NCBI GenBank assembly: GCA_907165135.1 | Contig: OU015566.1 | Location: 5,456,001 to 5,520,000, forward strand | DNA length: 64,000 nt | Direction of reading: 5' to 3' | DNA from: Oikopleura dioica | Lineage: Eukaryota; Animalia; Chordata | Program-made: the position numbers and the translations under genes | Notes under the pieces: model-generated | Database searches by the model: none | What the model was told of the DNA's origin: nothing | The model's input: only the letters and a program-made list of their open reading frames with translations | Shown: piece after piece, positions 1 through 28,580 of the stretch | How the letters are laid out: each line of letters opens with the position of its first letter | Position numbering within the stretch: the first letter of the stretch is position 1

Positions 1-171
1 CATCGCCGCGCCGTTAACATCCGTCAAGATTACTACCATGACGATGCGATTGACAAGAATCTCGGTCATAATCAGTTTCTCTGAACTCGCCTGTGCCCGC
101 TCAGATTTTCGTTTATTTATTGATTATCTTGGAGCAAGGAAAATTTTTGTTAACGGGTAATTTCTTAAGAC

Positions 172-3100
172 ATGACTCCAACAAAGCGCCGAAGCGTTCG
201 ACGCCCTGTGAGCACCCCTGAGCCGACAAAAACTGGGCTTAAGCTCAGTCGAAAAACCATGGCTTTGACTCCTATCCCGCGAATGTAAGTGTAAAAATTA
301 TTATGCTAGTAATACCATCAAAATTAAGGCCCCAGCCGTGCTTCAAGAAAACAATGGTGGGACACAAGCGGCGATTTGTCAAGGCATGCCGACGTAACAC
401 CCAGCAAGCGATTTCAAGCGTTGCGTCAATGGCGACCCATTACGCTGCGCCATTTGTTGCTGGAAGTCGCCGAGCAGGAGGTAATTAAAAACTAGAAGAA
501 TTCAATTCAATACTGTTCCAGGCAAGCGACGACGAAGCGGTGGCTCTCCTCAACACTCTCCCCCACGCAAAAAGTCCGTTCAGAAGCATCTGAAGAAAGT
601 GGGCGTTTTGATGAAAGACGCGTTCAACGCCGCCCAAAGTAAGTTCTGTCAAAAAAACTGAATGCCTGTTAAACATGGATCTTTTAGACTTTGCAAATAG
701 TCCAAAAGCTATTTGCCTTGGAGGGCAGATCGGCGATTACGAAGGTTACGTCTCGCTCAAGCACACTCCCTGCCAGCTTTCCTTTAAAAAGCCGCCCGCA
801 TTCAAGGCGCCCAAGCTCAACTTCGATGGCACCGTGACATCTCGACGACGCGGTGGCGAGCGTGTCAAGGTTCCCGGCAGCGGAACTCTTATGAAGGCCA
901 AAAACATCATCGAGCTAGGTAAAGAAAAGTCAAAATGCACACAATTTACGCAGAATTTAGATTAAAACTCCGCTTCGAATCGCCGCAGCCGGCATTTGTT
1001 TACATCTTTGACGAGCGCTTTTTTCCTGCCAACCATTGTTTTGAACTTTGGCACATCTTTTGTTTTTTACTCCATATTGAAACCTGCTCCTCGCTGCTCG
1101 CCTTTAACGCTGTTTTACGAATAGAGACACAAAAATATTATTTTCATTTGTTTGTTTTTAGATGGCCAGAACAAAAGCCGATCTACTCAAAAAAAGACAG
1201 GAGAGTTCGGCTGATAGAGAGACTAGGCGAAAACAAGGTAGCGTATCGCTGTGTATTTCTCCTGTTAATCGTTCTTCAGCTTTTGAGGCGTACAACAACA
1301 TTGTGCGCGTACAATCCAACGGAATGATGGCGGCGAGAAAGCGAAGTGCGCCCCTCCTTTCATCAGGTAAGAGCTTACATCAAGTTTTTTTTTGTGCTTA
1401 AAAAAAGATTGATCTAGCCTCTTATAGATTCAGAGGCAGAGGGTGATCTCCTCATCGACGAGGCAGCCGCCGGAGAGGAAGTTGCTGGCACAACTGGCCA
1501 AGATGAACCTGCCACGAAACCTGCTGGTAAAGCCTTAGTCGCAGCTAGCCGTACTTTGGAAGGTCTTAAGTCTGTAGAAAAGGACGCGGACGAGAGCGCG
1601 AAAAAGAAAAAAGCCAAGGAGGACAAAATCGACGGCGGGGCAAAAGAAGTGCCAACTTCGAAAAAGAAGAAAAAGAAAATCTCGGCTGGCGAAGAACCTC
1701 CAAAGAAAAAAACCAAGTCGGCAAAAGCTCTTAAGAAGCGGGCAAACGAGACGGAAGACAGTGATGAAGATCAGACCCCGTCAGCGCGTAAAAAGACCAA
1801 ACGAGTTCGCCGAAAAATCGTGCCCAAGTCGTACATTACGCAAATCGAGTGGCAACGAGATATCCAAGATTTCACAAACGACAAAGCCGCTCATATCTCC
1901 GACAGCGTTTACACAAACCATCCAGATTCAGCCAAGACTGTCGTAGTCAAATCTGGCGCTTCCACGGTTTTGCCTCGTAGCGACTTGCCCGAACCGAGCC
2001 TCATCGTCGGAGCTGATAGTGTTTTTCCGACAACGATCCCCTTTGATCCCGCTGTGGCTGCCTTTTTCGACCCCGAGATGACAGATAGCGATACAGATGA
2101 AGCCGCAAAAGCAGAGCGCCATGCTCAATACGAAAAACATGCGGCTATTTATCCGATGAATGTTCTCAAATTGCGCCAGGTTTACGCACGATCTTACTGG
2201 ACAATGCGAGGAGTCGCCGCTTCGCTTTACGACACTCGCCTTGGAATTTACGCCAGGAATCTGGCAAAACGATCCAAGCAACTGTTTAAAGACGAAACTC
2301 CCGAATCGCGCTTTCGAGTTATCTTTGAGAGCTCCTCCAAGCTAATGTACGATTCGTTTTACACAAAGCCAATGTCTGCGTCAGCTCCAGTAAAAAAATG
2401 GAAAGAAATTGGGGCCCTTTTTCCTATTTTCAACGTCAACGGCTTTGGCCACTTTGTCGCCGTTGATTTCCGAGTCTGGGTAATGTTTACATCATTGACA
2501 AAAATTTATTTGATGTTTTAGGTCAAATATGATAGCAATTGGAAACTCTTGTCGCTGCACGACATAAATCTTGGTCATCCTGCGGTCACCTTTGCAGGGC
2601 TAAACAATGTTACATCTACAGTGTATCCTTGGCCGAAGGAGGGCGATTACGCACTCGAAAAAAGTGCACTCTTGTTGACGATGGGTCTAGTCCCAATTCC
2701 ACATCGCCCGCCGTACGCTGATGCTGCCGATAAGCTCACAGCCGAGGTAAACAAAACTCATTAAAATCACGAATAAAATCTTTCCCATAGGTCTGCGAAA
2801 TGTTGGGCGTCTTTCGCCCATTACCCCACGGAATGGCTCACGATCAGCGTGACACAATATATTTGGAGCTCGAAAACATGCTTTATCGAAGCTTGATTGT
2901 GTCTAAAGAAGAAACTCTCCGCGCCCGAAGCGAAACCGACGCGCAATTCCCCATCGAAGAGCGCTTTAAAACTCTGGTTGGGCTTCTTGAGACACATTTT
3001 CGCCCTAGCGATGGTGGCTACGCTCCAGCAAAGAGCAAGGAAACAGCGAGACCCACTGAAGAGGCGTTTAGAACGCTATTTGAGGCTCTTCCGCCAGTTA

Positions 3101-3481
3101 TGAAACTCAAGGGGCTAGCACCTTCACGGGAGCTCTTTCGTCGCTTTCTACAAAGTTTGGCTAGCGTGCGATTTACCGAAAATCCAAGGCTTATGCGCAT
3201 CGTAAGTTTAATCTGATGTTGCTTTTTTTGATCTAAAAATAAATTAGTTTGGAGCGCCGACTATTCCAGCTGATATCGTGTCCTGGCAGGGGTGGGCGGC
3301 GCTTCCCGTTGAAGCCCTGTTACCTGCACCCGGGGTGAACGGTGGCAATCTCTTGCGCGAAGAGCTCGAAAAAATGCTTGCCAAGAAGCGACGGATCGAC
3401 TATGGAGCGGCTGAAGACAACCAAATCCCTCGTTATAAAGATTCTGCTCCATACCCGCGCCCTCCAATTACAAAGCATTAG
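172..3481 (+). CDS. Multi-exon Polinton accessory protein with Lys/Glu-rich central region, function unknown
   Basis: ORFs 1556-2521, 2549-2764, 2800-3216 and 3278-3481 join in frame via GT-AG introns 2480-2521, 2747-2790 and 3202-3247. The 5' exons (172-1427) are not fully resolved. Confidence 0.65.
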
Positions 3482-3563
3482 CTTATTTGATGTCACTCTG
3501 TCTGCCAAGTTAAATTTAGCGCTTAAAAACTAAAATTTATTTAAAAAATCGCTCGTTTAGAAA

Positions 3564-6348
3564 ATGCGAATTGTCAGTATTTTCTTTGTTAGCCCGTTGG
3601 TGGCCGCGCTACCTCATACATATGAAGAGGCCGAGCGCTACTGCAATATCGGAAGACATTATTCGACGGAATTCTGTCGCGAATTTCGCGGCGAGGAGGT
3701 CGTAAAGCGAGAGCCGACGACGAGCACAAGTACTACAAGTACGACGACTACGGCGTCGACTACAAGCACGACGTCGACTACAAGCGCGACGTCAACTACG
3801 ACGTCTACTACAAGTACGACCTCAACTACGACGTCGACTACAAGCACGACGTCAACTACTACGACCCGTCAAGAGCCAACTCAGGTGATGGGCGCGTCAA
3901 CGCTACCCGGCAATGATACGGAGGAAATTGTTACTACGGCCGAAATGCCTACGGCGGAAACAACAGTCGCTGCTTCGGACGGTCGACAAACAATTCCAAC
4001 ATTGACGATTCAATTGCCGGAAAGCGAAACAATAATTGCGAGTCCGAATGTAACGGTTCAAAGGTAATTTTTGTGCAATATGTATAAACAGCCGCCCGCA
4101 ATAAAATTCATTATAAACAAACAGCCGGTTTGATATCCTACCTCGAGCGCGGGGCCTACTTTTTTTTGGGGAACAGCGCATTTGTTTTGAACTTTGGCAT
4201 CACCAAAGATCGCCATCATGCGAGGCCCTGCTTTGGTATAAAAAGGGAGCGACTCAAAAACTAATTATCAAAATCAAAATCGATTCTTTTTCAAACAAAA
4301 CAAGAACAAGATCAACTTGAAACAATGAGCTGCCTTCCAGTCTTCAAGAAACTCGGCAAAATCCTCAAGAAAAAAGTCGGCGAGTACTCGCCCAAGAAGA
4401 ACGAGCCAGACAGAGAGGAACTCCTTTACTGCATTCGAAGACAGCCCATCGTCAAGAGCGATGGGTATGCCACGCTCCGCCGGTGGCCCGTGCAGGACAT
4501 GCATTCCTCGTTTCCGTTAGCCGAGGGGCGAAACTGGTCGTACACCCTAACCGCCTAAACCTACAGCTCCGCGCTCACGTACTCACTTTCTTCCCTCTCC
4601 GGTTCCTTATCACTTCTTATGACTCACACATCTCAACCTACGTAATCTATTCTAAAAAATCGTTAAAAAAATCAATAAAAATCTAGAAAATCGATAAAAA
4701 ATTTTTCTTTGTCTAGAAAATTCTAGGGGGCTGGGGATCTTCTATACCTGGAAACACCTGCACCTTGGGATCCCCCCGCGTAGATCAATGAAGCAATTTT
4801 GAGGTGTATGCAGGTATCGCCAAGGTGCAGGAATTTCCTGATAGGGAGGGATCTCAAAGCATAGAAAGTTTCTGACTAACGAATTTTTTCAGGCTGAACC
4901 AAACGACCGGTTACAACCTTTCAACCGGTTCTTTCGATTCGAGCAACTACAGTGTCGGCTTCTGGATTGTATTGACGCTGCTGATCGTGTTAGCGGTGTC
5001 CGTTTGGTGTTGCTGCAGTAAGGATATCAAGCGTTATGCGTGCAATGCCTGGGAGAGTGGCTGTGATTGGATCTACTCCGTGTGTCCCTGCTGCCCGGAC
5101 ATTGATGACGAGCAAGGCGACGGGTACCTTTTGGAACCGCGTGACTTGAGTCTACGATCTAGCTCAAACAGAGGAAGACCGACTGTAGTTGAGAATGCAA
5201 ATTACGTCAGAGGTAAATTCTGTCGATTGTTCACCAATTAATCATTACTAGGAAACGCGAAAAGTTCAAAAAACGCACCGCCTAAAAATTCGCGAATCGA
5301 GGAAGAATTTGAACGCGGCGGAAGCTCCGGCCCGCCTCGAGTTCCACCGCCGCCCGCTCCAACACGCTCTCGCGCGGCGAGAAAAAGCGCCAGCCGCCGC
5401 ACGTCTAAGCCCGCGCCCAAACGCATTCCAAAGCAACTTGTTCTTCCTCGACCCAAAACCTATGAGCCGAAATTCGAGTTTTCCCAATCGGACGATGAAG
5501 ACGACTGTTGCGAGACTTCGCCGCTCAACAAGCCGCCGAGCTGTACGGCACCCCCGCGCCCTAAACCTCCTCAATTAACGGTAGCTGCCTTTATTTTTGT
5601 TTCTTAAATTAATTTCGTTTAATAGAAAATCGAAACGGAGGAAGAAACCACACAAATCACAAAAGAGGATACGCCCCAGAATATTAAAAAAGAACCTAAT
5701 GAGGGTTCGTGGGTTTCGAACCTTTTCGGCAAAGCGTAAGTCTTTCCGCCACTTTGTCATTTTTAAAAATGTGCACTAGACTCAACTTAATTCCGGCTCT
5801 CCCCGCTCCAGTCCATCAAGCGGACGCAAAAGGTAATTTAATTTTCATAATTGCGCTGCTTAAAAATAAATTTAGTCGAGATAAAAAATGAAAAAGACTG
5901 CAAAGAAGAACTTGCTTGGTCGCCCCCAACCGCCGAAACCATCTTGGCCCAACCAAGCGTCAAAGTTGAAAATGAACAAATGACTCCTGTTCAAACTTTC
6001 TCCGCCCCGTCTCTCTCCTTGGCGGAAGTCGACCCTGACGAGAAAAATGCGCCTATCGTCGCACTTGCAGACACAACCGCTTTCAATGGTTTTGATGAAA
6101 CCGTTTTTCCCGTCGACACCACCGCCACCGCCGAGGGCGTTGACGACGGCGACAATGTCTCATTCTGCAGCGAAATTACGCCACAACAAACTCCAGAGCA
6201 ACCACATCGCGCACTTCCAGACATTGTGTCTGATCACGAGTCGCCAGTTATTGCGGCTCCAAAGTGTCCCTCGGCGCCCAAGAAAGAAAAAGTTATCTTC
6301 TCACGATACGGCCGCCGCGTGCAAGCACCAAAAAGATTCGAGTCTTGA
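3564..6348 (+). CDS. Type I membrane mucin-like glycoprotein with long Pro/basic-rich cytoplasmic tail
   Basis: Signal peptide MRIVSIFFVSPLVAA, Thr/Ser tract and sequons NDT, NVT, NQT, NLS, NYS. Intron 4064-4892 joins in frame to TM VGFWIVLTLLIVLAVSVW-CCC. Further exons run to the stop at 6348 (later joins less certain). Confidence 0.75.
3718..3865 (+). repeat. Coding ~18-bp degenerate tandem repeat (Thr/Ser tract)
   Basis: ACGACGTCGACTACAAGC-like units encoding TTSTTS. Confidence 0.85.
4237..4243 (+). promoter_or_regulatory. TATA box upstream of nested ORF
   Basis: TATAAAA ~85 bp before ATG 4325, preceded by the element motif TTTTTGAACTTTGGCA (4183-4199). Confidence 0.5.
4325..4558 (+). 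CDS. Small basic protein (77 aa) nested in the glycoprotein intron
   Basis: Intact ORF MSCLPVFKKLGKILKKKV..., with its own TATA, lying inside intron 4064-4892. Confidence 0.5.
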   Translation: MSCLPVFKKLGKILKKKVGEYSPKKNEPDREELLYCIRRQPIVKSDGYATLRRWPVQDMHSSFPLAEGRNWSYTLTA

Positions 6349-6481
6349 AAACTTACCACTTCCACTCTCTCATCAATCTATGTTCACTCCAATTTTAGCT
6401 CCATTCTCACACTCTCGCTCTCATTTTTGAATTTTAATTGTTTTTATATTTTTGTTTTGGATATTTTGTTTAGAACTTTGC

Positions 6482-8253
6482 ATGAGCCAGGCCGAGCTCG
6501 ATGGTGAGTGTGAGATTGTCTCCGAGAATGCGCCGACCGCAACCGCTAGTGGCGGGGCCTCCGCAGCTAAACGGGCAAGCAAATCATCAAGAGCAAGAAC
6601 GACAAGGTCGTCGAGCCGCCGAACAAGAGCCGACGCCCAGAACTCTTCGTCGAATAATGATGCGAGTAGACAGCGCGGTTCGCTTCCGAGAAGCAACAAA
6701 CGAAGAGTTCAACAGGCTAAGAACGGAAATAGCGGCGATCAAGCAATGTCTGATCTTGCAAAATCAGGCTATGAGCTTTCCTCCGCAAAACAATCTACAA
6801 CAAGAACAACAAGTCGAGCAGCCGATGCGCTGGATAACGAAACAATGGGTGAGTTTTTTGTCAAAAATCTATAATAATCGACTGTTTAGCAAAATGCGAA
6901 GTTATTAGCTCGCGCAGTTCTTCAATATGCGGACGAATTAGCCGGAACAGTCTTTCTAGCGCTTCTTATAACCGTTGCGCCAGCGTTGGCGATTCGATTG
7001 CTAATGCAGAATTAAAGGACGAAAATCAAACGGCAACAAAATCGCTGTCGATTCGCGCCCTGCGTAAACGTCAGAAAACCCCCATATTTGAACAATCTTG
7101 GCCCGAGTACTTTCAAGCCATCTGGGACAATGCTTACAATCGAACGAGTTTATTCGAAAATTGTCCCGTGAATATCGTCGGCGGTAATCGTTACTATCCT
7201 GAAAGTGGGATCAATTGGGCGCTTGCGATCATGAGAAACACACCCGAGGATTCAATCAAAAAAATGCTTTTGGGCTCGTCGTTGATCGATGGAAGTGTGC
7301 TTTATGGCCGACAGTATAACGAAACCGATTCTTTACTGCCGCCATCGCCGCAGCCGAGCCGCACTGCACCGAGCCGTACGGCGTCCGAATCAGATTCGTT
7401 TCGATTTTTTGATGCCAATCTTTGCGAGAAATATCCGCCGTTTCAACAACAAAGCGTCGCTCTCGCGACTCTTGAATTTTCCGTCATATTGGATGTAAAA
7501 TGTGTCCCGTCGTATCTTGTTGATGGAAGCCAAGCAACGGACCTTAACAAAGTACGCATTGTATCATTTGCGCTGCGCGATGTTGCCGAAAAAAAATCAA
7601 TGTTTGACGATACAGAACGGCATCACGAGAGCGAGTTTAATATCGGCGCTGATATTTCAGAAGAATGCATTACAGCAATCCGTCAACTCTGCACAAAATC
7701 GTATTACGACACGAAAATATCGCCAAGTTTTTCGACATCCTGCTGCGATATTCAAACGACCGCGTTTTGGCGAACACAAGTTTTGGACTACTATCTCACA
7801 ATTTGTGCGATAACAGACGCGCTAACCGAAACAGCGCATATGACAACGGTGGAGGACGAAAATTTTATTCCGCTCATGTACAAAAAGCTACAGCTGATTG
7901 AAAACGCTGCAACGGCTACAGTCGACGATCAGCAACAACAACGAGGCGAGGAAACAAATTTACCAAAAGTCCACAAAATGCTAGAAGATCTCGAGCGTGC
8001 ATTACAGCGGATTACACTTTTGCGTGATTCGTGCAAAAATGCCCACATCAACTTTTTAATAGGAAAGCGCTCCACTAAAATTCTGTCAACAAAAAAACAA
8101 ATTTGTAGAACGCGCTCTAAAAGTCTGCCGGAAATTTATCACCGAATATGTTCGTCAGCAAAGAGGACACATGAATCTCGTCTATTCACATACAAAATCG
8201 GAGATGGCAATTCTTTTGACTCGATTAAAAGGCGATCAAGAGACGTCGGATGA
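6482..8253 (+). CDS. Two-exon accessory protein (~575 aa), Ser/Arg-rich N-terminus, function unknown
   Basis: MSQAELDG... joins via GT-AG intron 6849-6889 in frame with ORF 7168-8253. Confidence 0.7.
6501..7015 (+). CDS. Overprinted tail-anchored coiled-coil protein (~157 aa)
   Basis: The alternative frame is open on both sides of the same intron 6849-6889 and ends in hydrophobic GTVFLALLITVAPALAIRLLMQN*. Confidence 0.55.
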
Positions 8254-8358
8254 GCGGCTGCGTCGTGAGATTTTGCTTAAAAGACTGGAAAAACTGCGCC
8301 AAGATGCAATCAACTCACATAGGCTGGGGTTATACCGATCGATTATCTATCACGAATA

Positions 8359-9438
8359 ATGGATAAGTTTAACCCCAAAAGACAAACCATGCGCCGCATA
8401 ATTTGTGTCCTTCATCATCGTTATGTTGCCTTTCAAATCGCCCGGAGAGAGAGTATGGACGAACGATGTAACGAGCTGCTCAAGCACAAGTCGATTCTAA
8501 ACGAAGAGTATCTGTCAGTAAAACGCCATCAATATAAATTGCTGCTACAGAAAAGTGAATACGACAGTGCCGATTTCAAACTTTATCGCGCGCGCCCCCT
8601 CGAATCAACCAGCGGAAGTGTTATTGAACATGCGCTCTGGAAACGTCAAGACGGTGATTATCACCCTGAAACACCAATATGTAGCAGCGGTGAAGATACA
8701 GACGACGGAATTCAAGACATTGAGGACGTCAGCTTGGACATTGAGCCGTCGATAAGCGACACAAGGTGCAAATATACAAATAATTAATATTTGATTCTTG
8801 TTTAGCAGAATATCCGCGGCGGCGCGATCAAGTGAAGAAAAAAAGCAATTGCATGTGCCGCCTCTACAAACTGCGCTGTCCCTTCTCACGCCAGTAACAA
8901 CAGCAGTAAGCAGTACTGCATGCACAACTGCAGAACAGAGTACGCTGAACCAAATTGTAAAAACTGCGGTCGCCAATTCTAATCTTCGACTCTTTACTGG
9001 GTCAAACAACACGCCCAGTCATCGAGTGGACAAGCTTCCAAAAATCGAACAACCGACAGACCTATCTTGTAAGCTCTTTTCACTCCTTCCCATAATTTAC
9101 TTTCAGTTTCAAATAAAATGCCGCCGCCGCAACATGTTCCGCCGCCGCCAAGTGTGCGGCCTGCCGTAGGGCCCGCCGTAGGGCCTGCCGTAGGGCCCGC
9201 CGTAGGGCCTGCCGTAGGTCCTGCCGTAGGGCAAGCCGTAGGGCAAGCCGTAGGGCAAGCTTTGTCTGCAGTACCGTCTAGGCCTACCGTAAGGCCTGTT
9301 GTCCCTCCTTTTCGCCCATCGTCAAACGAGAACATGTACAACATCAACGAGTGTGTTTATCAACCTTCTACTTCCACCGCCGCCGCCGCCGCCGCTTTAG
9401 AAAACTCTTTTGACCAAATGTTCAACAATTATCAGTAA
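8359..9438 (+). CDS. Multi-exon accessory protein with acidic and Pro-rich (PAVG)n regions
   Basis: ORFs 8359-8787, 8798-9169 and 9118-9438 are separated by short intron-like segments (~8766-8807, ~9069-9106). Exact joins were not checked. Confidence 0.55.
9160..9258 (+). repeat. 12-bp coding tandem repeat GCCGTAGGGCCT/GCAA
   Basis: About 8 units encoding PAVG/QAVG. Confidence 0.9.
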
Positions 9439-9535
9439 AATCATTTATTTCTATGCTAACCTGCTCCTGACAAGTTCACTTTTATAAAAAAAAACACGAA
9501 AAAATAAATGTTAATCGTTGTATAAAAAAGCGTTT

Positions 9536-10517
9536 TTATTGATTCAACCAAGAGGGAGGATAAGTGAGTACAATTATTTGGAAACCAAGGATTCGGTGAA
9601 GTCGAACGTTGCTTTCTTTGTAAACATTTCGACGGAGAAACGTATTTTGCAGCAGTTTATCGGCAAAAGCAGTCGGCTCCAACTCGGCAAGCATTTGATC
9701 CAGGTCCTTTTCGTTTCGCAGTATTTCTGTATCGTTTAGGCTTCCCCATGTATTCGGGTACACTATTTCGTAGCGCGTGTCAACATATGACTCGCCACTC
9801 TCGTCGGTAAATGTGTTGCTACTTTTTGTAATGTACCACGCGTCGACCGAGATTCGCAACAGGCCGTTTAGATTTTCCGCAAGCTGCTTGACAATGTTTT
9901 GAACATTGGCATCGTTCAACAGCGAAATTGTATACTTGTTGCAGAGCTGTGCATAGCGGCTATAATAATCGCCACCCAACTCGAGTTGATTTTCACGCCA
10001 AGATTGCCCTGAATTTGTTTCCAAATATAAAAACCTACAAAACAAACGTATATAGTAAATTGGAGGAAATCGTAATGAGTCGGCCGCAGTGAGCATTTTC
10101 ATTTCTTCAGGTTGAAAGTAGCCCTTGGGTGGGTTTTTATGCGGGATCAGCTTGTCCAAGAATTCGCGATTGGCCTTGCTCCCCGTTCCGAGAAAATCGC
10201 CTTCGTAATTCCAATCTGGCACCGCTTTTGACGCAGGAAAACCAATTCATTTGATGGCGACTCAAATTAAATCGCGGATCGTCAATCTCATCCAAGTCGA
10301 CGAAGCGCTCAGGCGGATTGAATTTGACGCGAAGTCTTGAATCCCGACGCTTTCGGAAAATATAATCGACAATGTTTTCGCCTTCTTCAATATCCGCATA
10401 TGATGATGATGATGATGATCGTCTATTGTTAAAGGAGTCGTCTGTGTCAGCAACAACAGAGCCATTTGCTTTTTCCGACGGTTTCAAATAATTGAAAATT
10501 GTATTCTTTGAGCCCAT
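9536..10517 (-). CDS. Putative stand-alone terminal-protein-like gene (one frameshift near 10225)
   Basis: ORFs 10137-10517 and 9536-10222 join by one base at GTCAAAAGCG. The C-terminal pattern (ILRNEKDLDQMLAEL...SNVRLHRILGFQIIV) resembles the N-terminal region of Polinton pPolB. Confidence 0.45.
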
Positions 10518-10556
10518 TCTGAAAAAAGAACAAACCTTACTTACAAAAACATTTAA

Positions 10557-16841: not shown

Positions 16842-16897
16842 TTTAGTAATATGACATTTATTGTACGTGCAGACATTTATATAAGAAACGTTATCGA

Positions 16898-18720: not shown

Positions 18721-18724
18721 GTGC

Positions 18725-19165
18725 CTAAAATATTTTATTTAAAACGTTGAACAGTTTTAGCAAATTCTGGCAAAAGCCGATCTTGCTATCAAGGGTTACA
18801 ACAAGGATCAAAATTAAGATAATTAAAGAAAATGCGCTCATAACAAGTGCCAAATCCCGCGGATGCATTCTCATCGCCTGAAAGAGACTCTTCGCATTTT
18901 TCGCTTTCGCCGTCCACCAAGCGGAATAACGCCACCACCACTTGTCACAAGATAAGCCACCCGTGTTTTCGCCTGCGGCTTCTTGGACGATTTTTTCCTT
19001 TTCAATTGCTTCCTTGCTCGCGAAGTTGATCGTCGTCGTCGTAAAATTGCCATTTTGCGTGATGCTTATGCCCCTGCAATTGTTGATGAAAACGCGCCAA
19101 CACAGCCTAAACAGATTCTTTATTGATTTCGCCAACACTTGTGACTTTGTTAAGTTCATTTTCAT
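18725..19165 (-). CDS. Small membrane protein with C-terminal TM helix, overlapping the integrase end
   Basis: MKMNLTKS... with TM LALVMSAFSLIILILILVVTL and a Trp-rich patch KWWWRYSAWW. Confidence 0.55.
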   Translation of the reverse strand: MKMNLTKSQVLAKSIKNLFRLCWRVFINNCRGISITQNGNFTTTTINFASKEAIEKEKIVQEAAGENTGGLSCDKWWWRYSAWWTAKAKNAKSLFQAMRMHPRDLALVMSAFSLIILILILVVTLDSKIGFCQNLLKLFNVLNKIF

Positions 19166-21011
19166 AGAAACGCCGGTTGAGCGCCGCGCCGCGTGCATCA
19201 TGGAGCGTAAACGTCGGAACAAATGTGCCCCAATGAATTTTAACAATTTTATAAAGTTCGGCGGACCAATTTGCCGTTGCTCCCTTTTTAAAAGGATTTT
19301 TTCCAAGCGCATTCACTGGAATTCGGACCAAGTCCCCGATGTAAAATTTTGTTCTTGTTTTACGGGCCCCAATATTTCGACGTTTTTGCTCCAAAATCCG
19401 TCTTTTGGTGGCATATCAATAGCATTGTGTACAGTTGCGTTATACATCGCATTAATATCTTGAAGGGCATGAATCCAGCGCCGCAAACCATTGTGCTCAT
19501 CAAAATAACGCTGCAGTCTCCCCTCGAGCGTTTGACTAAATTTTATTAAAATCTTCAACAGCGACGTAAACTTACATAAAGCGCTCTGCGATTGATGATT
19601 TATGACGCCCTCGAAGTTGATGAGGAGTTATTTGCCATTTCTCCAATAGCGGCAAAACGGCTCCTTTAAATTCATTGCCGTCATCGACCATAAGAAACGT
19701 GTGACCGGGTAAATCCAAGCGCTTTATGATGTCTTCAAGCGCTGCAGCCGTTTCTTCCGCCGTCTTGCGCTTTAGAGGGCGTACAAAGCTCTGACGTGAT
19801 AAACCATCCACAACAACAAGAATATATCTGTAGCCATTATTGATCTCAACATCGTTGGCGAACCATTCACAAGTATCAGCAAATAGACAAGTATAAAGTC
19901 CAGTCGCAATAATGGGATTACGGCGAAAACGTGATTTGTAGGGTTTGTGCATTGAGATTGTTTTGTTACGACGTTTAAATTTTGCAAGATCCATTCCACT
20001 ATAAGCAGAAGCGTTTTTCAAATTGTAAAAAAGATTTGCAGATGGCGATGTTGTGCCCGGTTCATTGCCAAAAGTTTTCCACATCGCTGATCGGGGACCC
20101 CTCATGAGGCGTGGATCCCTGCTCGCTTTGCTCCGATTCGTCCGATTGTTGAGCAGTTGTTGATCCTCTGGGCGGTTCGAATTCAGTAACCACTCGTTTT
20201 GATTTCTTTGGTCCCTTTGCGTAGGAAACATGCGGCTGTTCGCTTCCGGATTCGTTGTCACTGATGACAATGTACTTGCTTTCGTCGCTGTCGTCGCCTC
20301 TCGGGCCTGGGGTTGCCGCACGTTTTCGCTCAAATCTGACTCTTCGAAATCCATCATCTCGACGTCTTCGTTGTTGTCGTTGTTGGTTTGCATACTGCCG
20401 AATGATTCGTAGTTCATGTTCGAGTCGGCGTCGCTTTGCATATTCGCGTCTTGCAAGCCACTCAAACCTTGACGCTTCTCCGACCACTGTTGGGTGCCAT
20501 TCTCGTCGATTAGCGGATCTGTCGAATTCCACCATCCGGTGTCGCTCTCGGGGAGCTCTTGAATATCTGGGAGTCTCTGATTCAATTTCTTCAACGGGGG
20601 TTCGCTCTCGCCTGTCATCATGGTTAGAAACGAAATTCCCCCGGTTCGCGTGATCAGAGCGGGCGCTACTACCGGCGAAGCGCTTGTTGGTGACGTTGGA
20701 TCTCCGATTCCAATCTTGTTCAGATTGTTGGATAGATTCATTTGCCATGAAGCCGCGATTTCCAGTGGGTTCTGACCCGTTGCCACTTGCTGCGCGTTTG
20801 TTTTGATCTTTGCCAACGCGCTGTCCATCGGTTTGGGTGTCTCGACCGACCCCGTTCTTGCGATACTCGGGGTCGTCTGGAGTGTCGTCCCAGTCGGAAA
20901 AGTCGTCGTAGTCTTCGCCAAATTCTCCGAGAGCCTTCGATTTCCCAACGGGATAAACTCGGTCGCATATTCGTCCAAGTAAGCCGGCCGTTTTACTCGC
21001 CTCTTCGTCAT
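19107..21011 (-). CDS. Retroviral-type (rve) DDE integrase of Polinton class
   Basis: ADT...YRYILVVVDGLSR, VDDGNEF, AERF|IQTL (40-nt intron 19575-19536), YNATVH, GDLVRI..FKKG..NWS..FYENEL. One frameshift near 19380. Confidence 0.92.
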
Positions 21012-21141
21012 AGTCTGGATAGGGAGAGCCTTTTGTTTTTGGAGCGGTAAATCGTATTTCACCGGTATCTGGATTTGTTTCGTACTCGGAACAAAAATGG
21101 TCTATACAGTCAAGCGGGATGCACGCGTACGGATTTGGCAT
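20062..21141 (-). CDS. 359-aa acidic/Arg-rich protein overlapping the integrase 5' region in another frame
   Basis: ATG-initiated uninterrupted ORF with an Arg-rich helix (RREYAKRRRLEHELR...QRRRRDD). Confidence 0.6.
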   Translation of the reverse strand: MPNPYACIPLDCIDHFCSEYETNPDTGEIRFTAPKTKGSPYPDYDEEASKTAGLLGRICDRVYPVGKSKALGEFGEDYDDFSDWDDTPDDPEYRKNGVGRDTQTDGQRVGKDQNKRAASGNGSEPTGNRGFMANESIQQSEQDWNRRSNVTNKRFAGSSARSDHANRGNFVSNHDDRRERTPVEEIESETPRYSRAPRERHRMVEFDRSANRREWHPTVVGEASRFEWLARREYAKRRRLEHELRIIRQYANQQRQQRRRRDDGFRRVRFERKRAATPGPRGDDSDESKYIVISDNESGSEQPHVSYAKGPKKSKRVVTEFEPPRGSTTAQQSDESEQSEQGSTPHEGSPISDVENFWQ

Positions 21142-21353
21142 TTCATTAGAAAATGATAATTAAGCTAAAAAAACGAGTATTTATATACTTAGTCTGTTAA
21201 TGCTGCTTACGTTTTCTCTTTCTCTTCCGGTCTGTACGTTAAACTAGATATACATAGAATTTATAGTATATAAACGTGCGCCATCGAGTGTTAATCCTTT
21301 ACGCGCATATAAATACCCCTGCGAAACGGCAAATCTGGCAAGACTGTCAAAAA

Positions 21354-21743
21354 ATGAATCCAGTTGAAGCTGAAGCTAGAGAAAACTGCTGGCCCGTACA
21401 AGCGGAGATTTCTGGTTATCGAACTGATCTTTGGCCTACCCGATACTTTGTCCGTGCGACCCCTGTTGAGGGTGGTTTGCGAATCGACGAGAAACTACCT
21501 GCCTGGTACAATCGTCTTGAAGAAGGTGTCGAATTCACCGCCTTTGTGAGCGACCAAACTTTCAACTTGAACAACCCCGAGGAGAAAGCGTACTTTGAGT
21601 CGCTTGAGAAGAAGTTTAAGCGAAAAACCGGCGTCATCTGGCTCACCGACTGCCTGGATCGTAAGAAGGCGGGCTACGAGCCTGAGGGAAAAACCAAGGG
21701 ACTCTTTGTTGCCCGGGCTTTTACAGCATGCCCAACTATTTAG
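21354..21743 (+). CDS. Hypothetical protein (129 aa) upstream of the ATPase
   Basis: Intact ORF MNPVEAEAR..., whose end overlaps the ATPase start. Confidence 0.55.
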   Translation: MNPVEAEARENCWPVQAEISGYRTDLWPTRYFVRATPVEGGLRIDEKLPAWYNRLEEGVEFTAFVSDQTFNLNNPEEKAYFESLEKKFKRKTGVIWLTDCLDRKKAGYEPEGKTKGLFVARAFTACPTI

Positions 21744-22537
21744 CTCGTTACTGTGAAGACTTGCGATTTGAGCACCCCTGTTGCTTATTGGTGAGTGGCC
21801 ACTCGGGCGCTGGAAAATCAAATTTTATAAAAAATACGATAGAGCATAATGGAATCAGAGGTACTATCAAAACAATTTTTTATTTTATGCCCCGATTAGA
21901 ACCCTTAGATATTACTCCCGCTCCACATCAGCGTCTTTTTGTCATGGCGGGTCTTCCAACGCAAAGTTGGATAGACGATACTTTTAAAGACAGTACGCGT
22001 GATACAATGCTTGTTATCGACGATATGTGGAGCGCGTGTATTGAAAGTCCTGTAATTGAACAATTAGTAATTTATGGCCGTAGGCATCAGGGGATCTCGC
22101 TTGCATTTACATGTCACAATTTCTTCGAGCGATCTAAGAGGTCAATAACAATACGGTAAGTCTCTAAATTTGAATAACATTTTTGATTTATTTTTAGTCT
22201 TTGCATGACCGCAGTCATCTCGTTTATCAGTGAAGCCGATTTGAGTGCAAACCGCGTCATCTTCAGCAAAATGGGATTACTCGAGCCATTCAAGGCTGCT
22301 ATCGACCTCTTCAAGAAGAAACGCGTTTCAAAGCATCAATACGTTATTGCCCGAAAGGATGTTACAAAACCAACACAGGCGAAATTCTACACTAACGTCT
22401 ACGGTGAAATACCCGGATTGAACGGTGTTCCTTGGGTTCTGGCTTTTGATACTGCAAAACACGTTTATTCTTCCAACATCAAATATTTTTGTTTTATTGC
22501 AGGCAAAAGAGCTAAAATTTTATCGCAGGTAGATTGA
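21728..22537 (+). CDS. A32/FtsK-like genome packaging ATPase
   Basis: LRFEHP, Walker A GHSGAGKS, Walker B LVIDD, GRRH motif. The 42-nt intron 22156-22197 joins TIR|LCMTAV in frame. Confidence 0.9.
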
Positions 22538-22973
22538 GTGTGCACAGTTTTGAATCAATTTTGACAGGATTGTTCATCTTAGCAATCGCGGTAAGTGGCT
22601 GATCGTCGGGATGTGAGGAAAGAATGAGGCGGTACAATTTACTTTCGATTCGAGTTATAGCCTTGCTGAGCTGGATTCTTCTTTTTCTGAATTTTTTCAA
22701 GCCTTCTTCTACTTTATCGATTCTGGCCCGAAGTTTTATATTAACCGGATGGTCTGCATTTTTCGGAACGGTGTGCCTTGCCTTGTAGTTTTTCCATTGT
22801 CGCTCCTGCATAAGCAGCTTTCGAATTTCAACTTCACTTTTGCCAAAAAGTTCTTTGAAAATGGCTAGTTGCTTCATAAAGAGATTTATCTCGACTTGAG
22901 TAGGAGTGTGCCATTCAACATGGGCAGAAAAGTCTGAAAAAATTTCAACGCGATATATCCGTAAAAGTTCCAT
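22512..22973 (-). CDS. Coiled-coil hypothetical protein
   Basis: 153-aa ORF with a basic heptad segment (LRARIDKVEEGLKKFRKRRIQL). Confidence 0.45.
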   Translation of the reverse strand: MELLRIYRVEIFSDFSAHVEWHTPTQVEINLFMKQLAIFKELFGKSEVEIRKLLMQERQWKNYKARHTVPKNADHPVNIKLRARIDKVEEGLKKFRKRRIQLSKAITRIESKLYRLILSSHPDDQPLTAIAKMNNPVKIDSKLCTLNLPAIKF

Positions 22974-23399
22974 ACTTTCTTGAGTGTCTGGTTCTCATTT
23001 TATCGCAATAAAAATGGCGCCATCAAATACAACCGATTTCACACAATAGCGGGATATTGCTTCAAAAGAGCGCATAACGCTTTGTTTTGATCATTGGCAG
23101 TGTGAAATTGCCGATAGAAAAAAGGGAAACCATAACGGTGTGATCGATCTGAGACAACAGTAGCACAGTAGATATTCAACAAAATTGTTAAAATGAATGC
23201 ATGGCCTCTATTTGAGTTTTTGAACTGATGCCTATAGCTTAACATCACATAAACTACCAACAAGACCAATTTTGACTCTTTATCATAAAAAGGCAAAATT
23301 TATTTTCTAGAATTATTATTGTTTATTGCAGCTTAAAACGTAAATTTGAGAGATATACAGTGTTAAAAGCGCATAGTTTGTTTGCAGATGCTAAAAATC

Positions 23400-24010
23400 A
23401 ACACCCTCGCCATTCAGGCTAAATCCACGCCCTCCTTTGGTTCGAATATGAACTTTAACTCGTTGCTGCAGAAGATCGTCGTACAGCTGGGAAGCGTGAT
23501 CTTGGCGCAGTGCACAGAGGCGTAGAGCTTCCTTGTGAATTGCCTCACGCTCCTCCTCTCGAAGATTCGCTCCAAGCTCGTTGACGAGCGAGTCTGAACA
23601 TTTTATAAGATTGATGAAGTTTCAAGGACATTCTTACCGACTTCGTGCGCTTCTTGGTCGTTGATGGCATTTCCCGGAAGCCCGTTGAGAGCGTCGAGCC
23701 CCTCACCAAATTCGATGGGCTCTTCTCCGATGCCGGGGTCCATTTCGCCGCCCTGCATCGGACCGGGCTCGTTTTCTTCGACATTGTTTTGTTGACCCTC
23801 GGCTGTGTTTGGATCGTAATCCAACGCTTTAAAATTTTTTCAATTTATTCAATTAGCGCAAAATTTACCTTGTGGCCTTTGCAAGTTTCGTTGCACAGCG
23901 TCGATAGATCGTCGAATTTTATTCTTCAACTCCTTGCCGGATTTACGAATATCCAAGCGCGGAATCTCGGGGGTTTCGGCTTGGAGGAAACGTTCCATTC
24001 GAGCGAGGTT
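23400..24010 (-). CDS. Multi-exon acidic hypothetical protein
   Basis: Exon-like segments (~24010-23868, 23824-23637, ~23590-23400) separated by short GT-AG-like spacers. The model is not fully resolved. Confidence 0.35.
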
Positions 24011-24397
24011 TCGTTTGGTTTCGGCCACAATTTTTCGTAGCTCCGAAAAATTCTACCACAAAAAATATTTCTGCCTGACTGATACTAAAATTACCTGTTT
24101 TTTCATTTTAGTGTTGTTGTTAGCCTGCAAAAATCAAACTGATTTAAATTTCTGCCAAAGATCAAAACAAAAGCCGTGTTCTAGAAAATTTTTTCATTTT
24201 TATTGTTGACATTGACAAAAAAAGAAAATAAAAGACAATAACACTCAGTAAAAAGTCAGGGAGCTTTTCGCCATCAATGTTCGTCGTTTTGCGTCTTCAT
24301 AAGCGAAATAAGCAGATGCTTCTTTAATTTCACAGATTATGACTCGTCGTCGGGCGAGGCTGAGATCTTAAAAAAGTAAAGAAAGTGGTCGACATTT

Positions 24398-24721
24398 CTA
24401 AAGCTTACTTTTCCAATCAGGGCAGCAATTCTCCAAGTTCTCAAGTTCCGATTCTGTAAAAAAATCCTCAACTTTCTCGAGGATGAACTTTGCTCCAGAC
24501 CCCTGGACCGCCTGTTTCGGCTTTTGACAGCCCGAAGAAGGAGACGGATCAATTGGGCGAGTAAATACATCATCGACAGCGTCGCATGCTTCGACAAAAG
24601 CCGCTACAATGTCACTTGTTGCCGACTCCGAGTCCGGAACATGCTCGTCGATCGGATCGACCGGGGTCTTGGCATCTTCGTTTTGAACAAGTTGACCAGC
24701 TGATTCGACCAAATCGCTCAT
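24398..24721 (-). CDS. Acidic hypothetical protein (107 aa)
   Basis: ATG ORF directly downstream of 24751-25362. Confidence 0.45.
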   Translation of the reverse strand: MSDLVESAGQLVQNEDAKTPVDPIDEHVPDSESATSDIVAAFVEACDAVDDVFTRPIDPSPSSGCQKPKQAVQGSGAKFILEKVEDFFTESELENLENCCPDWKSKL

Positions 24722-24750
24722 ACTCTCAAAAAAATAAATTAAGTGGTTAT

Positions 24751-25362
24751 TTAAAGGACGGAATCCGCAGAGGGTGCTTTTTTTGCGGTATCTACTCTTG
24801 CATCACTCACAAGTATTTCGACTTTTTTTATATATTTATCGAGATATTTTTTAGGGAACGCGTATTTTTCCAAGATATTTTGGCGAGCTTGTAAATATTT
24901 AAGTGACTCGAGATGCCCAATTAATTGCGCTCGTGAGAAAAATTTAAAATTGGGAATCATTTCATCAATGAGACTTTTAATATACCCATCAATGTACGCT
25001 TCAGAATGCTTTTTTCGATCGCGTGACATGTAATCGCGAACAACTGTCTCCGCAAATAAAACATACGCCCCTATAACATAGGGGCAATTTAAATTGGTCC
25101 AAAATCTTGTGAGCCATGCAAAATGGTGCGTAAACGAACGGTACACCACTTTTTGTCGAACTAGATCAACAGTATAATTGGATTCGTTTTGAAAGTTATC
25201 GTTGTCAGGGGGCTCAAGGCGGCGGCGATATTCTAAATCGCGATAAATGACCACTTGATCGTGACTTCCGCAGCTGCGGCTTTTGTAGTTTAGAACAGAA
25301 AATCCAGAGTCAGTATTAAAGAGTCTGCTCAAATCTGATTCAAATTCTCGTTCGTCCGACAC
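24751..25362 (-). CDS. Hypothetical protein (~200 aa)
   Basis: Long ORF with globular composition. Its start is a non-ATG codon, so an upstream exon (possibly ORF 25561-25800) is likely. Confidence 0.5.
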   Translation of the reverse strand: MSDEREFESDLSRLFNTDSGFSVLNYKSRSCGSHDQVVIYRDLEYRRRLEPPDNDNFQNESNYTVDLVRQKVVYRSFTHHFAWLTRFWTNLNCPYVIGAYVLFAETVVRDYMSRDRKKHSEAYIDGYIKSLIDEMIPNFKFFSRAQLIGHLESLKYLQARQNILEKYAFPKKYLDKYIKKVEILVSDARVDTAKKAPSADSVL

Positions 25363-25965
25363 GGTTGCCCGCTGATGCCACTGTGAAAAGTCTCTTAGTG
25401 AAAGTGGCCAATTCTATCACATGAGATCACAATGGGCAAATTTCACTAGCCTGTGGGTACGTCTCCAATACTCATCATGATTTAAACCTTTCAAAAATGT
25501 ATGAATCGGCAGCACTTAAAATGTTCTTAATCCTAGCAATCATAAATACTGACTGCGTGATTAAAAAACATTCTCTGAAACTTCCTTGAGATGCGCACGA
25601 ACGACCTGGAACCATGCTTTCTTCTCTTCGTCGTATTCTTGACTCACCCTGAATACAACTCGACTTACGGTGTCTGTTGAGGAAGTACCGATGACAAGTT
25701 CAAGCGCCGAAAAGGGGTTATTTTCACGTATTCTCGGAAAAGGTTGATTTTCAATTTGCAATTTTCTACCATGACACTTGAGTGTATAGAAATGTGCCAT
25801 TGTCGGAAAATTTGTACTCGCAGCGTGCTTTTATACTCCACCGATCCTCAATTTTTGACATTAAGACGAAGACACCGTAAATTAAAATTGCCGGATTAGC
25901 AACTATATGTAGTATAAGCCGCCTTTAAATACCATTGTCGATGACATCAATGTGTCACTTTTAGT

Positions 25966-26570
25966 ATGCCTCGGATTGAAATTAAAATCCACGAGGAAAC
26001 CGAGCCAACTGCTATCATGAACGAACGTTCTGAGCCCAAAAAGCGACCAAAACGTTCGCGTGATCCCCAGAAGGAAACTGAAAAAACATTCAAGGATCAG
26101 AAAAACATAACAATAGAGCGTCTTGCAGAATCCGGTAATTTATTTTAAAACGATCATGCTTAACTTTTTTACGTAGACTCTTATGAAGAATCCCTTAATA
26201 TATTACGGGAATACTTCTGTGACGAAGAGGGGCGAGTGGCGGACAAAATCACAAATTACGCTTTGGAGCTGTGCGAAGATCTCTTCAGCGATCTCGCGGA
26301 GCTAACCGAGCGCAAATCCAAGCCAGCACCTGCAAAACGTGGACCGGGGCGACCACGGAAAAATCCGCCACCTCCATCAAAGCAACCAGAATCAGATGAC
26401 ACGCAACTTGAAGACGGGGAAATCGAGCCTGCTGAGCCAACGGAAAGTAAGCAAGATGGTGAAATTATGAAAGTTATTTAAGTTAGAAAAATCAAAACCA
26501 ACGCCCTCCCAAGATGAGCCGCCTGATAGCACAACGGGAAAACGTTCTGTCCGAACCACGAACAAAAAGT
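25966..26570 (+). CDS. Multi-exon basic protein with an AT-hook
   Basis: ORF 25966 followed by an intron and exon 26236-26481 containing KRGPGRPRK. Confidence 0.55.
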
Positions 26571-26763
26571 AAAGACCCTTCATTTTCTGTATTCTGAGCA
26601 CTGTACATGTTGAACAGTTCTTTATTTTAGGCGTTTATTTATCTGCTGCTGCGAATTGTTTATAGATCGCTCATTATGTATTATTTTCATCATAAAATGC
26701 GAAAAAATAAAAAAAGTCATCTGAAAATTTCTTAATTTTGTGTTAAAAATAATGGCTGGCCAA

Positions 26764-26939
26764 TGTTTTGCTCATTGACAGCACTTGTTTAAAACTGGGT
26801 TAATGTTTTGATCATTGACAGCACTTTTTTAAAACTGGGTAAATGTTTTGATCATTGACAGCAGGTTCAATTCTTTAAGCATATGTTTTTATCTTTGGCA
26901 ATGTTTCTGCACAAAAACCCGATATTTTGCTCTTTGGCA
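26764..26939. repeat. ~40-bp-phased array of the element motif (5 copies)
   Basis: TGTTTTG(A/C)TCATTGACAGCA at 26764, 26804 and 26844; TGTTTTTATCTTTGGCA at 26884; TATTTTGCTCTTTGGCA at 26923. Confidence 0.85.
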
Positions 26940-27860
26940 AGACTGCATGCAAATTGTGCTTTTGCTGATTTTTACTTATCGGATGCATAAAGTTAACACA
27001 TTTTTAATGGGATAATTTATTTACTCTAGAAGTATGGCTGGATTACATATGAATTTTTGAAGTTCATTTTAAGAAAGAAAGCGTTTCTAAACAGTCAAGC
27101 GGATTTTACAAAGTGATGCGAAATAATCAACAGCATTTTGATATCATTTTAAAATTTCTTCGGTGGACTTCAATGGATTGCAAATTATTTTGTTTCATTT
27201 TAGACATTGAATTTATCAATTTTGGAGTAAAAAATAATGATATTCATTTTAAAGTACATAAACAATGTAACAGAAAACCTATTCAATGCAAGGGAATCAG
27301 AATCATTTTTTTAGAATTATCATTTTATAAAAATAGAGATAACAGGGAGTACGTCATTCATAATACTCATTTTGAACTCATTTTATCAATCATTTGAAGC
27401 TTCTTATTGAATATTTTTTTCAGGTTAAGCCAGAAGTTATTCATTTTATAAGGTTCTCTTCAATTTATTTCAATCCAGCTTGCCGAGATTTTCTCATTTA
27501 AAAAAGTTGAGGCTATTTTGTTTTTTATTCGTGCATATTTATCAAGTGAAGAAAAGAAGCTTCATGCCATTGCTTAAATGCCCTCGAAGAATCGTTACGC
27601 AAAGCGGGATGAATTGATTTTAGATTTTATGCTCAGCCGGTGAGATTTTTGACAAGCGATAAGATCGATGCTTATTATAAGGAGGAAAGTTTGAATAAAT
27701 ATTTATTATAACTGTATTAATACGTGTGTTATCTGTACACTTAAGATTGACAATGTCGCTTGCTTGCTTAAAATATTAATAAAAACTTCGAAATACTGAT
27801 TTATGGTTTTTGTTTTTTTAATGACGACAGTAAGACAGATAGGAAAACAGATTGCTTGGA

Positions 27861-28295
27861 TTAGTCCAACGAATCTTCTAGGAGATCCGGATGATCACTT
27901 GCTTTGGTTGATTGAAACCGAATTGGTTGATAGCCTGGCAAGAGTCTCTTTGGAGTTGCTGCGAGTGCGTTGAAAATAATGAGATCGTAATTGTAATAGT
28001 GATTACAAGGATCGTCATACGCGGACTCTAGTAAGGATTCGAGGTATCGATCTTTCACTCGGCAAACAGAGTTGGAGCAGGAATTGTCTTTTATTATTCG
28101 CGTCATATCGTAGCCCACTTGAGTAATAAATGATTGACCGCCAGATGGCGGATAAACTACCCCTGAGTTGACTAGAATGTCTCTATATAGATCGGGATTA
28201 GCAAGCAATTGGTTTGCAAGCGATACAATTTCGTCTTTGGATTTTTCGACAATTTTGGTAGTTGGCGGCCAATCTCGAGGCATTATTCCGCTCAT
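27861..28295 (-). CDS. Orphan ORF near the right terminus (144 aa)
   Basis: Uninterrupted ORF with globular composition. No motif recognised. Confidence 0.4.
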   Translation of the reverse strand: MSGIMPRDWPPTTKIVEKSKDEIVSLANQLLANPDLYRDILVNSGVVYPPSGGQSFITQVGYDMTRIIKDNSCSNSVCRVKDRYLESLLESAYDDPCNHYYNYDLIIFNALAATPKRLLPGYQPIRFQSTKASDHPDLLEDSLD

Positions 28296-28439
28296 TTTAC
28301 TGCGATATTAAGATTCTGCGATTATAAAGACGAGGGAGTGGCATCATCTAGCGACAGAGGATTAGGAGCGAGAGAAATCGGACGTCTTGTTCAGTTGCTG
28401 TGTGTTCGGCAGAAAAAATGAGTCGATATTGATTTTCGA

Positions 28440-28580
28440 TGATCTGCGTCATTGTTGTGATCTTTGGCAGTTCTAAAAATAGACAGTAAATGGGCGCGCA
28501 ATTTGAAAATGCGTAGGTAGGATCTGACCAATGGGACCTACATGGATCTTGGAAAAGGCCTATCTACACACTATACTACT
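28440..28580 (-). repeat. Putative right terminal inverted repeat end of the Polinton
   Basis: AGTAGT terminal tandem on the minus strand at 28580. The element-wide motif TGTGATCTTTGGCA occurs at ~28456-28469. The partner TIR is not in the window, so the inner boundary is unknown. Confidence 0.65.

Follow-up and report, generated by a model that had tools for sequence, protein, structure and literature searches.

A Polinton/Maverick element of Oikopleura dioica with putative spliceosomal introns in its core genes

Genes and boundaries of the element

The window, a 64,000-nucleotide stretch of the Oikopleura dioica genome, contains an integrated element whose features are listed in Table 1. 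From its pPolB and rve integrase it classes as a Polinton/Maverick proper and belongs to a distinct clade; an earlier note had called it a Polinton-like virus, and although the hallmark genes named there hold up, the class is amended here. The polB match (DNA_pol_B_2, E 1.6e-11) is above the Pfam cut-off, and the matches of the integrase (rve, E 1.4e-5) and the ATPase (Pox_A32, E 1.5e-4) agree with the identities given in that note at scores below the Pfam curated cut-offs; the ATPase homolog P0182 is above the cut-off. The integrase has 2285 homologs, with matches that include integrases of intronless Polinton loci. The capsid ORF, named as such in that note, has a predicted double jelly-roll structure (model pLDDT 65), with mavirus, iridovirus, Sputnik, MELD virus, and adintovirus capsids as its top fold matches (TM ~0.3) and an Atlas assignment (0.97) to Preplasmiviricota clusters. 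The basic KKRK tail of the protein comes from a short second exon.

Table 1. Features of the O. dioica Polinton, with the basis of each or a remark
Feature	Coordinates	Strand	Basis or remark
Polinton/Maverick element	1..28580	.	Four hallmark genes; left end beyond the window
Left module, intron-rich accessory genes	1..9438	+	Holds proposed introns 2480-2521, 2747-2790, 3202-3247, 6849-6889
Conserved ORF downstream of polB, broken in this copy	9536..10517	-	Putative intron 10047-10009
polB, broken in this copy	10560..16841	-	DNA_pol_B_2 match
Putative polB 3' intron, 39 nt	10771..10809	-	Comparison with relatives; absent from the earlier list
Long GA-AG interruption of polB, 1036 nt, phase 0	11259..12294	-	Between motifs B and C
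Putative polB 5' intron, 45 nt, phase 1	16754..16798	-	GT-AG, open flanks
Double jelly-roll major capsid protein	16898..18720	-	Predicted fold
Putative capsid intron, 44 nt, phase 1	17047..17090	-	Site also occupied in L003 (93 nt) and L004 (85 nt)
rve integrase, long N-terminal extension, start uncertain	19107..21101	-	rve match; frame break near 19400
Putative integrase intron, 40 nt, phase 2	19536..19575	-	Directly past catalytic-Glu motif; site also occupied in L004 (43 nt)
Second ORF, ~360 aa	20062..21141	-	Out-of-frame overlap with integrase extension over 345 codons; L004 has it too
A32-like packaging ATPase	21728..22537	+	Pox_A32 match
Putative ATPase intron, 42 nt, phase 2	22156..22197	+	Divides conserved Arg codon; site also occupied in L004 (41 nt)
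Right module, small ORFs	22515..28307	.	Some with tiny-intron candidates (23637-23594, 26135-26176)
Probable right terminus	28559..28580	-	Begins AGTAGT; no partner repeat in the window

A shared 16-nt motif is present in 15 copies at positions 1-28580 and in none at 28581-64000, and a host-type gene starts at ~29.7 kb, to the right of the element. The window search for the right-end pattern gave a single match; its AGTAGT start is typical of Polinton ends. The element is likely larger than 28.5 kb, a size that depends on the left gene module belonging to it. The accessory genes of that module have no Pfam match above the cut-off; further intron candidates are present there besides the four proposed earlier. 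No maturation protease (adenain-like) was found among the window ORFs with a profile built from only two proteases (best E 0.98); introns may divide the gene, its sequence may have diverged too far, or it may lie beyond the window. Several small ORFs are unassigned, and none was picked out as a candidate single jelly-roll minor capsid protein. Within the right module, a Vps52/COG-like assignment of ORF 24754-25413 (Atlas, recognition 1289) was dropped because the matches are weak.

The window copy has at least four frame breaks and is either decaying or imperfectly assembled. The core genes carry putative introns, as the earlier note held, but not in an intact copy, and because of the breaks the copy may not be expressed. 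Four O. dioica RNA runs were mapped to 12300-32200, an interval that begins just past the long polB segment; depth on the element was at most 0.16 with no joint inside it, and most of the reads that fell on the flanking host gene were less than 95% alike, likely from another lineage.

Interruptions of the core genes

All four hallmark genes are interrupted, and the intronless core ORFs described for Polintons are not found here. Eight short introns had been proposed in core and accessory genes, and all eight segments start with GT, end with AG, are 40-46 nt long and join open frames, each with exactly one phase in which both flanks are open. They are 72-81% AT, seven of them 16-33 points richer in AT than their flanks; the polB segment 16798-16754 is the least distinct, at 7 points. 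A scan of 1-28580 for frame-joining tiny-intron candidates, which itself missed two of the eight, returned 17. Two sets of 30 shuffles averaged 3.1-3.9 and peaked at 6-9, a control that favours the intron claim since shuffling destroys ORFs. A looser strand test gave 18 sense and 4 antisense intron-like segments in the left module, with no excess in the core module (10 sense, 16 antisense) or the ATPase (2 and 2), so the case for the core-gene introns rests on homology and not on motif counts. There were no Rfam matches at the gathering score to group I or group II self-splicing introns in 1-30000.

The comparison of intron positions with relatives bears out the earlier proposal for three of the core genes: sites and phases are common to relatives at 35-56% protein identity. 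A syntenic marine relative (L004) matches the window in the site and phase of its integrase, ATPase, and capsid introns, with protein identities of 56%, 53%, and 35% respectively. In the integrase tree all 14 calls that stop one residue past the intron site lie in one 22-row clade (SH-aLRT 100, quick tree), compared with none of the 51 other rows, and matches ending one residue after the motif make up 16 of the top 26 but none of the other 124. Distant Polinton integrases are uninterrupted across the site. Within the clade, P0027 and P0034, both O. dioica gene models, read on past it and may be intronless. All five ATPase homologs examined stop or drift at the intron site. Among seven capsid homologs, two O. 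dioica gene models enter the same basic tail, one reads through with a 14-residue insert, and four stop or drift; a public gene model of the window locus uses the capsid intron. The intron in the conserved ORF downstream of polB is common to L003 and L004, in both of which it is GC-AG.

Putative introns are present in some relatives and exactly absent from others. Two relatives (P0009 and P0020) read through the polB 5' intron site as one ORF. The polB 3' site is occupied in L002 and L004 and empty in L003 and L005, with L003 lacking exactly the segment held by its close relative L004; the frame fails to close across this segment in the window copy. Some of the shared introns additional to the eight are exactly absent from close relatives. 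These additional shared introns, the long polB interruption and the frame breaks were not reported in the earlier note.

The long polB interruption is common to a sub-clade, and as a putative intron it matches the unusual GA donor of Oikopleura. Its donor reads AG|GAA, its ends are paired with an AG duplicated, and it contains four copies of the element's own repeated motif; its acceptor is without a pyrimidine tract. L002 has a 342-nt insert at the same site, and both sequenced inserts have the AG|GAA donor, an AG end, phase 0, and frame-consistent flanks. They are GC-rich (50% and 59%), hairpin-rich, and without common sequence. A conserved stem was not established, since the end-to-end pairing is equalled by 585 of 3000 shuffles for L002 (13 of 3000 for the window). 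Further GA-AG segments of 64, 203, and 833 nt are carried by relatives. A motif in polB had suggested a Vsr-like domain, but there was no Pfam match, and a PDB sequence search gave nothing useful.

Origin and age of the introns

The shared sites and phases in L004, together with the clade pattern of the integrase, support the view that the integrase, ATPase, and capsid introns are an old trait, probably inherited at fixed positions within the clade, and not recent insertions into one copy. The clade lies on a long branch in quick integrase and polB trees made without bootstrap. Metagenome and viral contigs scanned with the capsid yielded no locus; scanned with polB, the viral contigs yielded a single weak one.

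Insertion of introners (host intron-generating transposons) after integration, as in dinoflagellate eupolintoviruses, would make the introns recent passengers. The precedent is known (PMC12166617, accessible text), and the paired ends and duplicated AG of the long polB insert are what a small transposon might show. However, no sequence could be aligned among 13 tiny introns of the window and L004 (best local score 22), and integrase clade members at 42-62% identity agree in site and phase, a recurrence that random, independent insertions would not produce; this origin is very unlikely, and for the integrase, ATPase, and capsid introns it is largely refuted. Still harder to credit is a decayed copy in which short AT-rich insertions, or errors of assembly, mimic introns. 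The window copy has its frame breaks, and Genewise labels such insertions 'introns' in decayed vertebrate Mavericks (PMC8097293, in the text available), but identical sites occur in independently assembled metagenome contigs with unbroken polB frames, and there the intron sequences differ yet keep GT/GC and AG ends.

The long polB segment could instead be a non-autonomous mobile element that targets a conserved site and inactivates the polymerase, which we regard as rather unlikely. Its composition, the dissimilarity of its two versions, and the acceptor without a pyrimidine tract would fit, as would P0016, which lies outside the sub-clade and also departs at this site. Against it, the polB rows known or inferred to hold the insert form one clade (support 100, quick tree), phase and both ends are kept in the two sequenced versions, and the window insert carries the element's own motif.

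It is highly probable that this is a clade of Polintons with inherited GT-AG introns in the integrase, ATPase, and capsid genes, predicted from sequence to be spliced by the host. The host spliceosome would likely remove the short segments from nuclear RNA polymerase II transcripts. The clade ancestor may have gained them while replicating in the nucleus of a tiny-intron host, with retention since and occasional exact loss and gain, and one sub-clade would have acquired the long GA-AG intron, which would require an Oikopleura-type spliceosome. Host introns have a median of 49 nt and 11% are non-canonical (PMC8008620, accessible text); GA donors read AG|GAA (PMC7072748, likewise). The long co-evolution proposed earlier stands as an old intron-bearing lineage; "this host" is too narrow, since the clade includes marine-metagenome relatives, and is better widened to this host lineage or any hosts that splice in a similar way.

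A more speculative extension, which we consider unlikely, is a larvacean-associated Polinton virus family in which host splicing gates every core function. The introns lie at, or immediately ahead of, the final conserved motif in the integrase, ATPase, and polymerase, and the capsid intron precedes a basic, probably nuclear-targeting tail, so that unspliced RNA would yield dead or mislocalised proteins. The P-element, with its regulated intron, is a parallel. The long polB intron would then be a host lock openable solely by GA-permissive spliceosomes and may also house the repeated cis-motif.

Comparison with known elements

The element resembles animal Polintons/Mavericks (Eupolintoviridae, adintoviruses; PMC8097293, PMC8502044, 10.1101/2023.08.22.554363) in its pPolB, rve integrase, A32 ATPase, and double jelly-roll capsid, in its two facing modules, and in its integration in an animal genome; the best viral fold matches of the capsid are a MELD virus and an adintovirus protein. 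It differs in its interrupted hallmark genes, its long-branch clade, and the protease not found in the window ORFs. Intact vertebrate Polintons are typically 13-25 kb, compared with probably more than 28.5 kb here, and are without introns in the accessible part of PMC8097293. Intron-containing accessory genes in a side module are shared with the cargo-bearing nematode Mavericks (10.1101/2022.07.12.499685), whose core genes are stated in the available text to be intronless, whereas those of the O. dioica element are interrupted. Spliceosomal-type introns within integrated Polinton-type elements are also described for introner-carrying dinoflagellate eupolintoviruses (PMC12166617, accessible text); those introners are multi-copy, mostly gained after integration, and ~75% lie outside coding regions, whereas the O. 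dioica introns, compared within the window and its relatives' loci, have unique sequences at inherited core-gene sites. The AG|GAA donor and AG end recall GA-AG introns of O. dioica and Eurytemora affinis (PMC7072748, part of the text), but the polB inserts, putative introns by sequence, are 342-1036 nt, GC-rich, with paired ends, and in a viral polymerase.

Inherited introns in capsid and packaging genes would imply continued expression through the splicing apparatus of the host nucleus, a point that matters to the question of whether Polintons are autonomous nuclear viruses. The clade is a compact record of putative intron gain and exact loss, non-canonical donors included, and it occurs in a lab-cultured chordate, O. 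dioica, where splicing is testable. Polinton surveys call ORFs without introns and regard interrupted copies as fossils (PMC8097293, PMC9356565, in the parts available), so an intron-bearing clade would be overlooked or misfiled. The public gene models of this Polinton locus are chimeric.

Gene content and limits of the element

The element, which occupies positions 1–28580 of the window, encodes a pPolB polymerase (Pfam E 1.6e-11), an rve integrase (E 1.4e-5) and an A32 ATPase (E 1.5e-4), and a further ORF is, by predicted fold (model pLDDT 65), a double jelly-roll capsid. The best PDB matches of the capsid model are mavirus, iridovirus and Sputnik capsids and its best BFVD matches a MELD virus and an adintovirus protein (all with TM about 0.3). 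A search of the window ORFs with a profile built from two proteases found no protease (best E 0.98). Over 952 residues the window polB shares 99.9% identity with an annotated O. dioica gene model, P0008, and the integrase and capsid match a second, P0022. Several further family members in the same assembly (P0011, P0013, P0018, P0021 and P0027) have 40–58% polB or integrase identity and lie on at least three chromosome-scale scaffolds.

The left end falls outside the window and the right end is probably at 28580, where the terminal letters are typical of such elements. The left module is probably part of the element: the 16-nt motif TGTTTTGA(A/T)CTTTGGC, possibly a promoter or replication-factor site, occurs 15 times in the element and not once in the 35-kb flank; a looser link is a Pro-rich ORF in convergent orientation that L003 and L004, two related metagenome loci, have at the corresponding position. 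The Thr-rich repeat ORF (table) has a hydrophobic start and is followed by a transmembrane-like ORF; together these may encode a single mucin-like membrane protein, in which case a small ORF (4326–4560) would be nested in a long intron. Two overlapping reading frames, both conserved at the protein level and matched by codon shuffles in 9/5000 (window) and 4/5000 (L004) trials, likely reflect an overprinted gene on the integrase N-terminal extension.

Coordinates of features in the window and in related loci
Feature	Coordinates	Remarks
Left module	1–9438	
Motif copies	1039, 4185, 9897, 11717–11840, 20801, 23085, 24167, 26806–26925, 28455	four in each range
Accessory introns	2480–2521, 2747–2790, 3202–3247, 6849–6889	
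Thr-rich repeat ORF	3564–5036 (+)	
Intron, ORF next to polB	10047–10009	
polB 3′ intron	10809–10771	
Long polB segment	12294–11259 (-)	1036 nt, phase 0
polB intron	16798–16754	
Capsid intron	17090–17047	
Capsid ORF	18720–17086	
Integrase intron	19575–19536	
Overlapping frames	21159–20065 (-)	345 codons
Overlapping frames, L004	1837–3051	388 codons
ATPase intron	22156–22197	
Foldback or inverted-repeat elements, host flank	29393–29629, 52576–53876, 61032–63770	
Ty3/gypsy LTR retrotransposon	33189–39816	
Tandem duplication	40315–42597	period about 1.25 kb
GA-AG segment, L006	1183–2015	833 nt
Intron candidates, L008	9384–9447, 10570–10612	
Intron candidate, L007	3031–3233	

Predicted tiny introns and their sites in relatives

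The earlier note had proposed eight tiny introns in core and accessory genes, and all eight segments are indeed GT-AG, 40–46 nt long and 72–81% AT, with open frame on both flanks. The element contains 17 frame-joining candidates against a mean of 3.1–3.9 in shuffles, which destroy ORFs. A looser strand test gave 18 sense against 4 antisense segments in the left module, a positive outcome, and 10 against 16 in the core, where it was not positive. The accessory introns are therefore supported only by sequence signal and the core introns by homology. Thirteen tiny introns that were compared have no sequence in common, so nothing points to a recent family of introners (intron-generating transposons).

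A polB scan of metagenome contigs yielded 37 loci, with L002–L006 as family members. L004 (13.9 kb) shows synteny with the window over the stretch between the ATPase and the ORF beyond polB, both included, and its hallmark proteins are 35–56% identical to those of the window. In its integrase, ATPase and capsid genes L004 has GT-AG segments of 43, 41 and 85 nt respectively, each at the matching codon and in the same phase; the capsid site is also occupied in L003 (93 nt). All five ATPase homologs either end at the intron site or diverge there into short tails, and among seven capsid homologs two gene models run on into the same basic tail, one reads through a 14-residue insert and four halt or drift. 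The polB 5′ intron is missing from two relatives; L002 and L004 have the 3′ intron, which the earlier note had not listed, and L003 and L005 lack it exactly. The window shares the intron in the ORF next to polB with L003 and L004, where it is GC-AG. L007 and L008, a sister pair at about 25% identity, have candidates at other sites, some within polymerase motif A (GG-AG and GA-AG) or at a distance of two codons from the long-insert site.

When the integrase core was searched against 1.84 billion representatives, 16 of the best 26 matches ended one residue past the catalytic-Glu motif, the effect expected of a phase-2 GTAA donor in an intron-blind gene call; three others end 5–27 residues later, six continue, and one lacking the motif pattern ends at the site. 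None of the remaining 124 ends there (79 continue, 6 end 3–30 residues later and 39 do not extend to the motif). A quick 73-row tree was built from 69 of the 78 proteins P0023–P0100, aligned over at least 105 residues, and four DNA-derived rows (P0101–P0171 excluded). It groups all 14 one-residue stops with the window and L004 in a single clade of 22 rows (SH-aLRT 100). At the protein level, two O. dioica gene models in this clade run past the intron site.

The comparisons establish the intron sites, their phases, their conservation and their exact absence in some relatives. From these we infer expression, splicing and activity of the element: most likely it would be transcribed in the nucleus and its transcripts spliced by the host major spliceosome, the introns having been gained in an ancestor of the clade and since inherited with turnover. 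The introns cluster at conserved motifs, a pattern suggestive of a splicing gate, but it may also arise because homology is easiest to read there. Intact vertebrate Mavericks lack introns (PMC8097293). The core genes of nematode Mavericks are intronless and their cargo genes contain introns (10.1101/2022.07.12.499685), and the introners of dinoflagellate eupolintoviruses were for the most part acquired after integration (PMC12166617). Cryptophyte PLVs contain group I introns, and PLVs in general range from 14 to 40 kb (PMC12220804). The accessible text of 10.1101/2023.08.22.554363, PMC8502044, PMC9356565, 10.64898/2026.07.28.741278, PMC13326754, PMC4350176 and PMC6431247 contains no case of inherited introns in Polinton core genes. 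Literature searches over the main text of papers readable without subscription found no report of inherited spliceosomal introns in these genes or of this O. dioica clade.

The long polB interruption

The long segment lies between polB motifs B and C, starting CAG|GAA and ending AG. L002 has 342 nt with identical ends at the same site, and polB is uninterrupted there in all four other family loci (L003–L006). A polB clade with support of 100 comprises the window, L002 (P0010), three proteins departing at the site and P0020, which stops before it; the same departure is seen in P0016, which lies outside the clade. Frequent GA-AG introns are a feature of two animals, one of them O. dioica; in these introns the GA is preceded by AG and followed by A (PMC7072748). 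Relatives have other GA-AG segments, 64, 833 and 203 nt long. The L006 segment is at a different polB site.

The segment is probably a spliced intron; a site-targeting insertion is an unlikely but serious alternative. The window and L002 inserts have no mutual sequence similarity and no Rfam family match, and predicted pairing of the insert ends is convincing in the window (13/3000 shuffles) and not in L002 (585/3000).

Condition of the window copy, RNA and flanking elements

Frame switches without an intron occur in polB near 15370 and 11030 and in the integrase near 19400, the two sides of the polB 3′ intron do not join in frame, and the ORF beyond polB is disrupted; these breaks may reflect either decay or long-read error. 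Four RNA runs, apparently from another lineage, lack usable coverage of the element. Reads on the adjoining host gene do skip stretches of 46 and 39 nt that coincide with GT-AG segments, so host and element introns are in the same size class; the median host intron is 49 nt (PMC8008620).

The 234-nt LTRs of the Ty3/gypsy element are identical and its target duplication measures 5 bp, so it is a young insertion; its pol is divided among several frames. The tandem duplication has 82–95% identity. Among the foldback or inverted-repeat elements, the arms of the second contain 11-bp tandem repeats and the third encloses a CAP-domain ORF.
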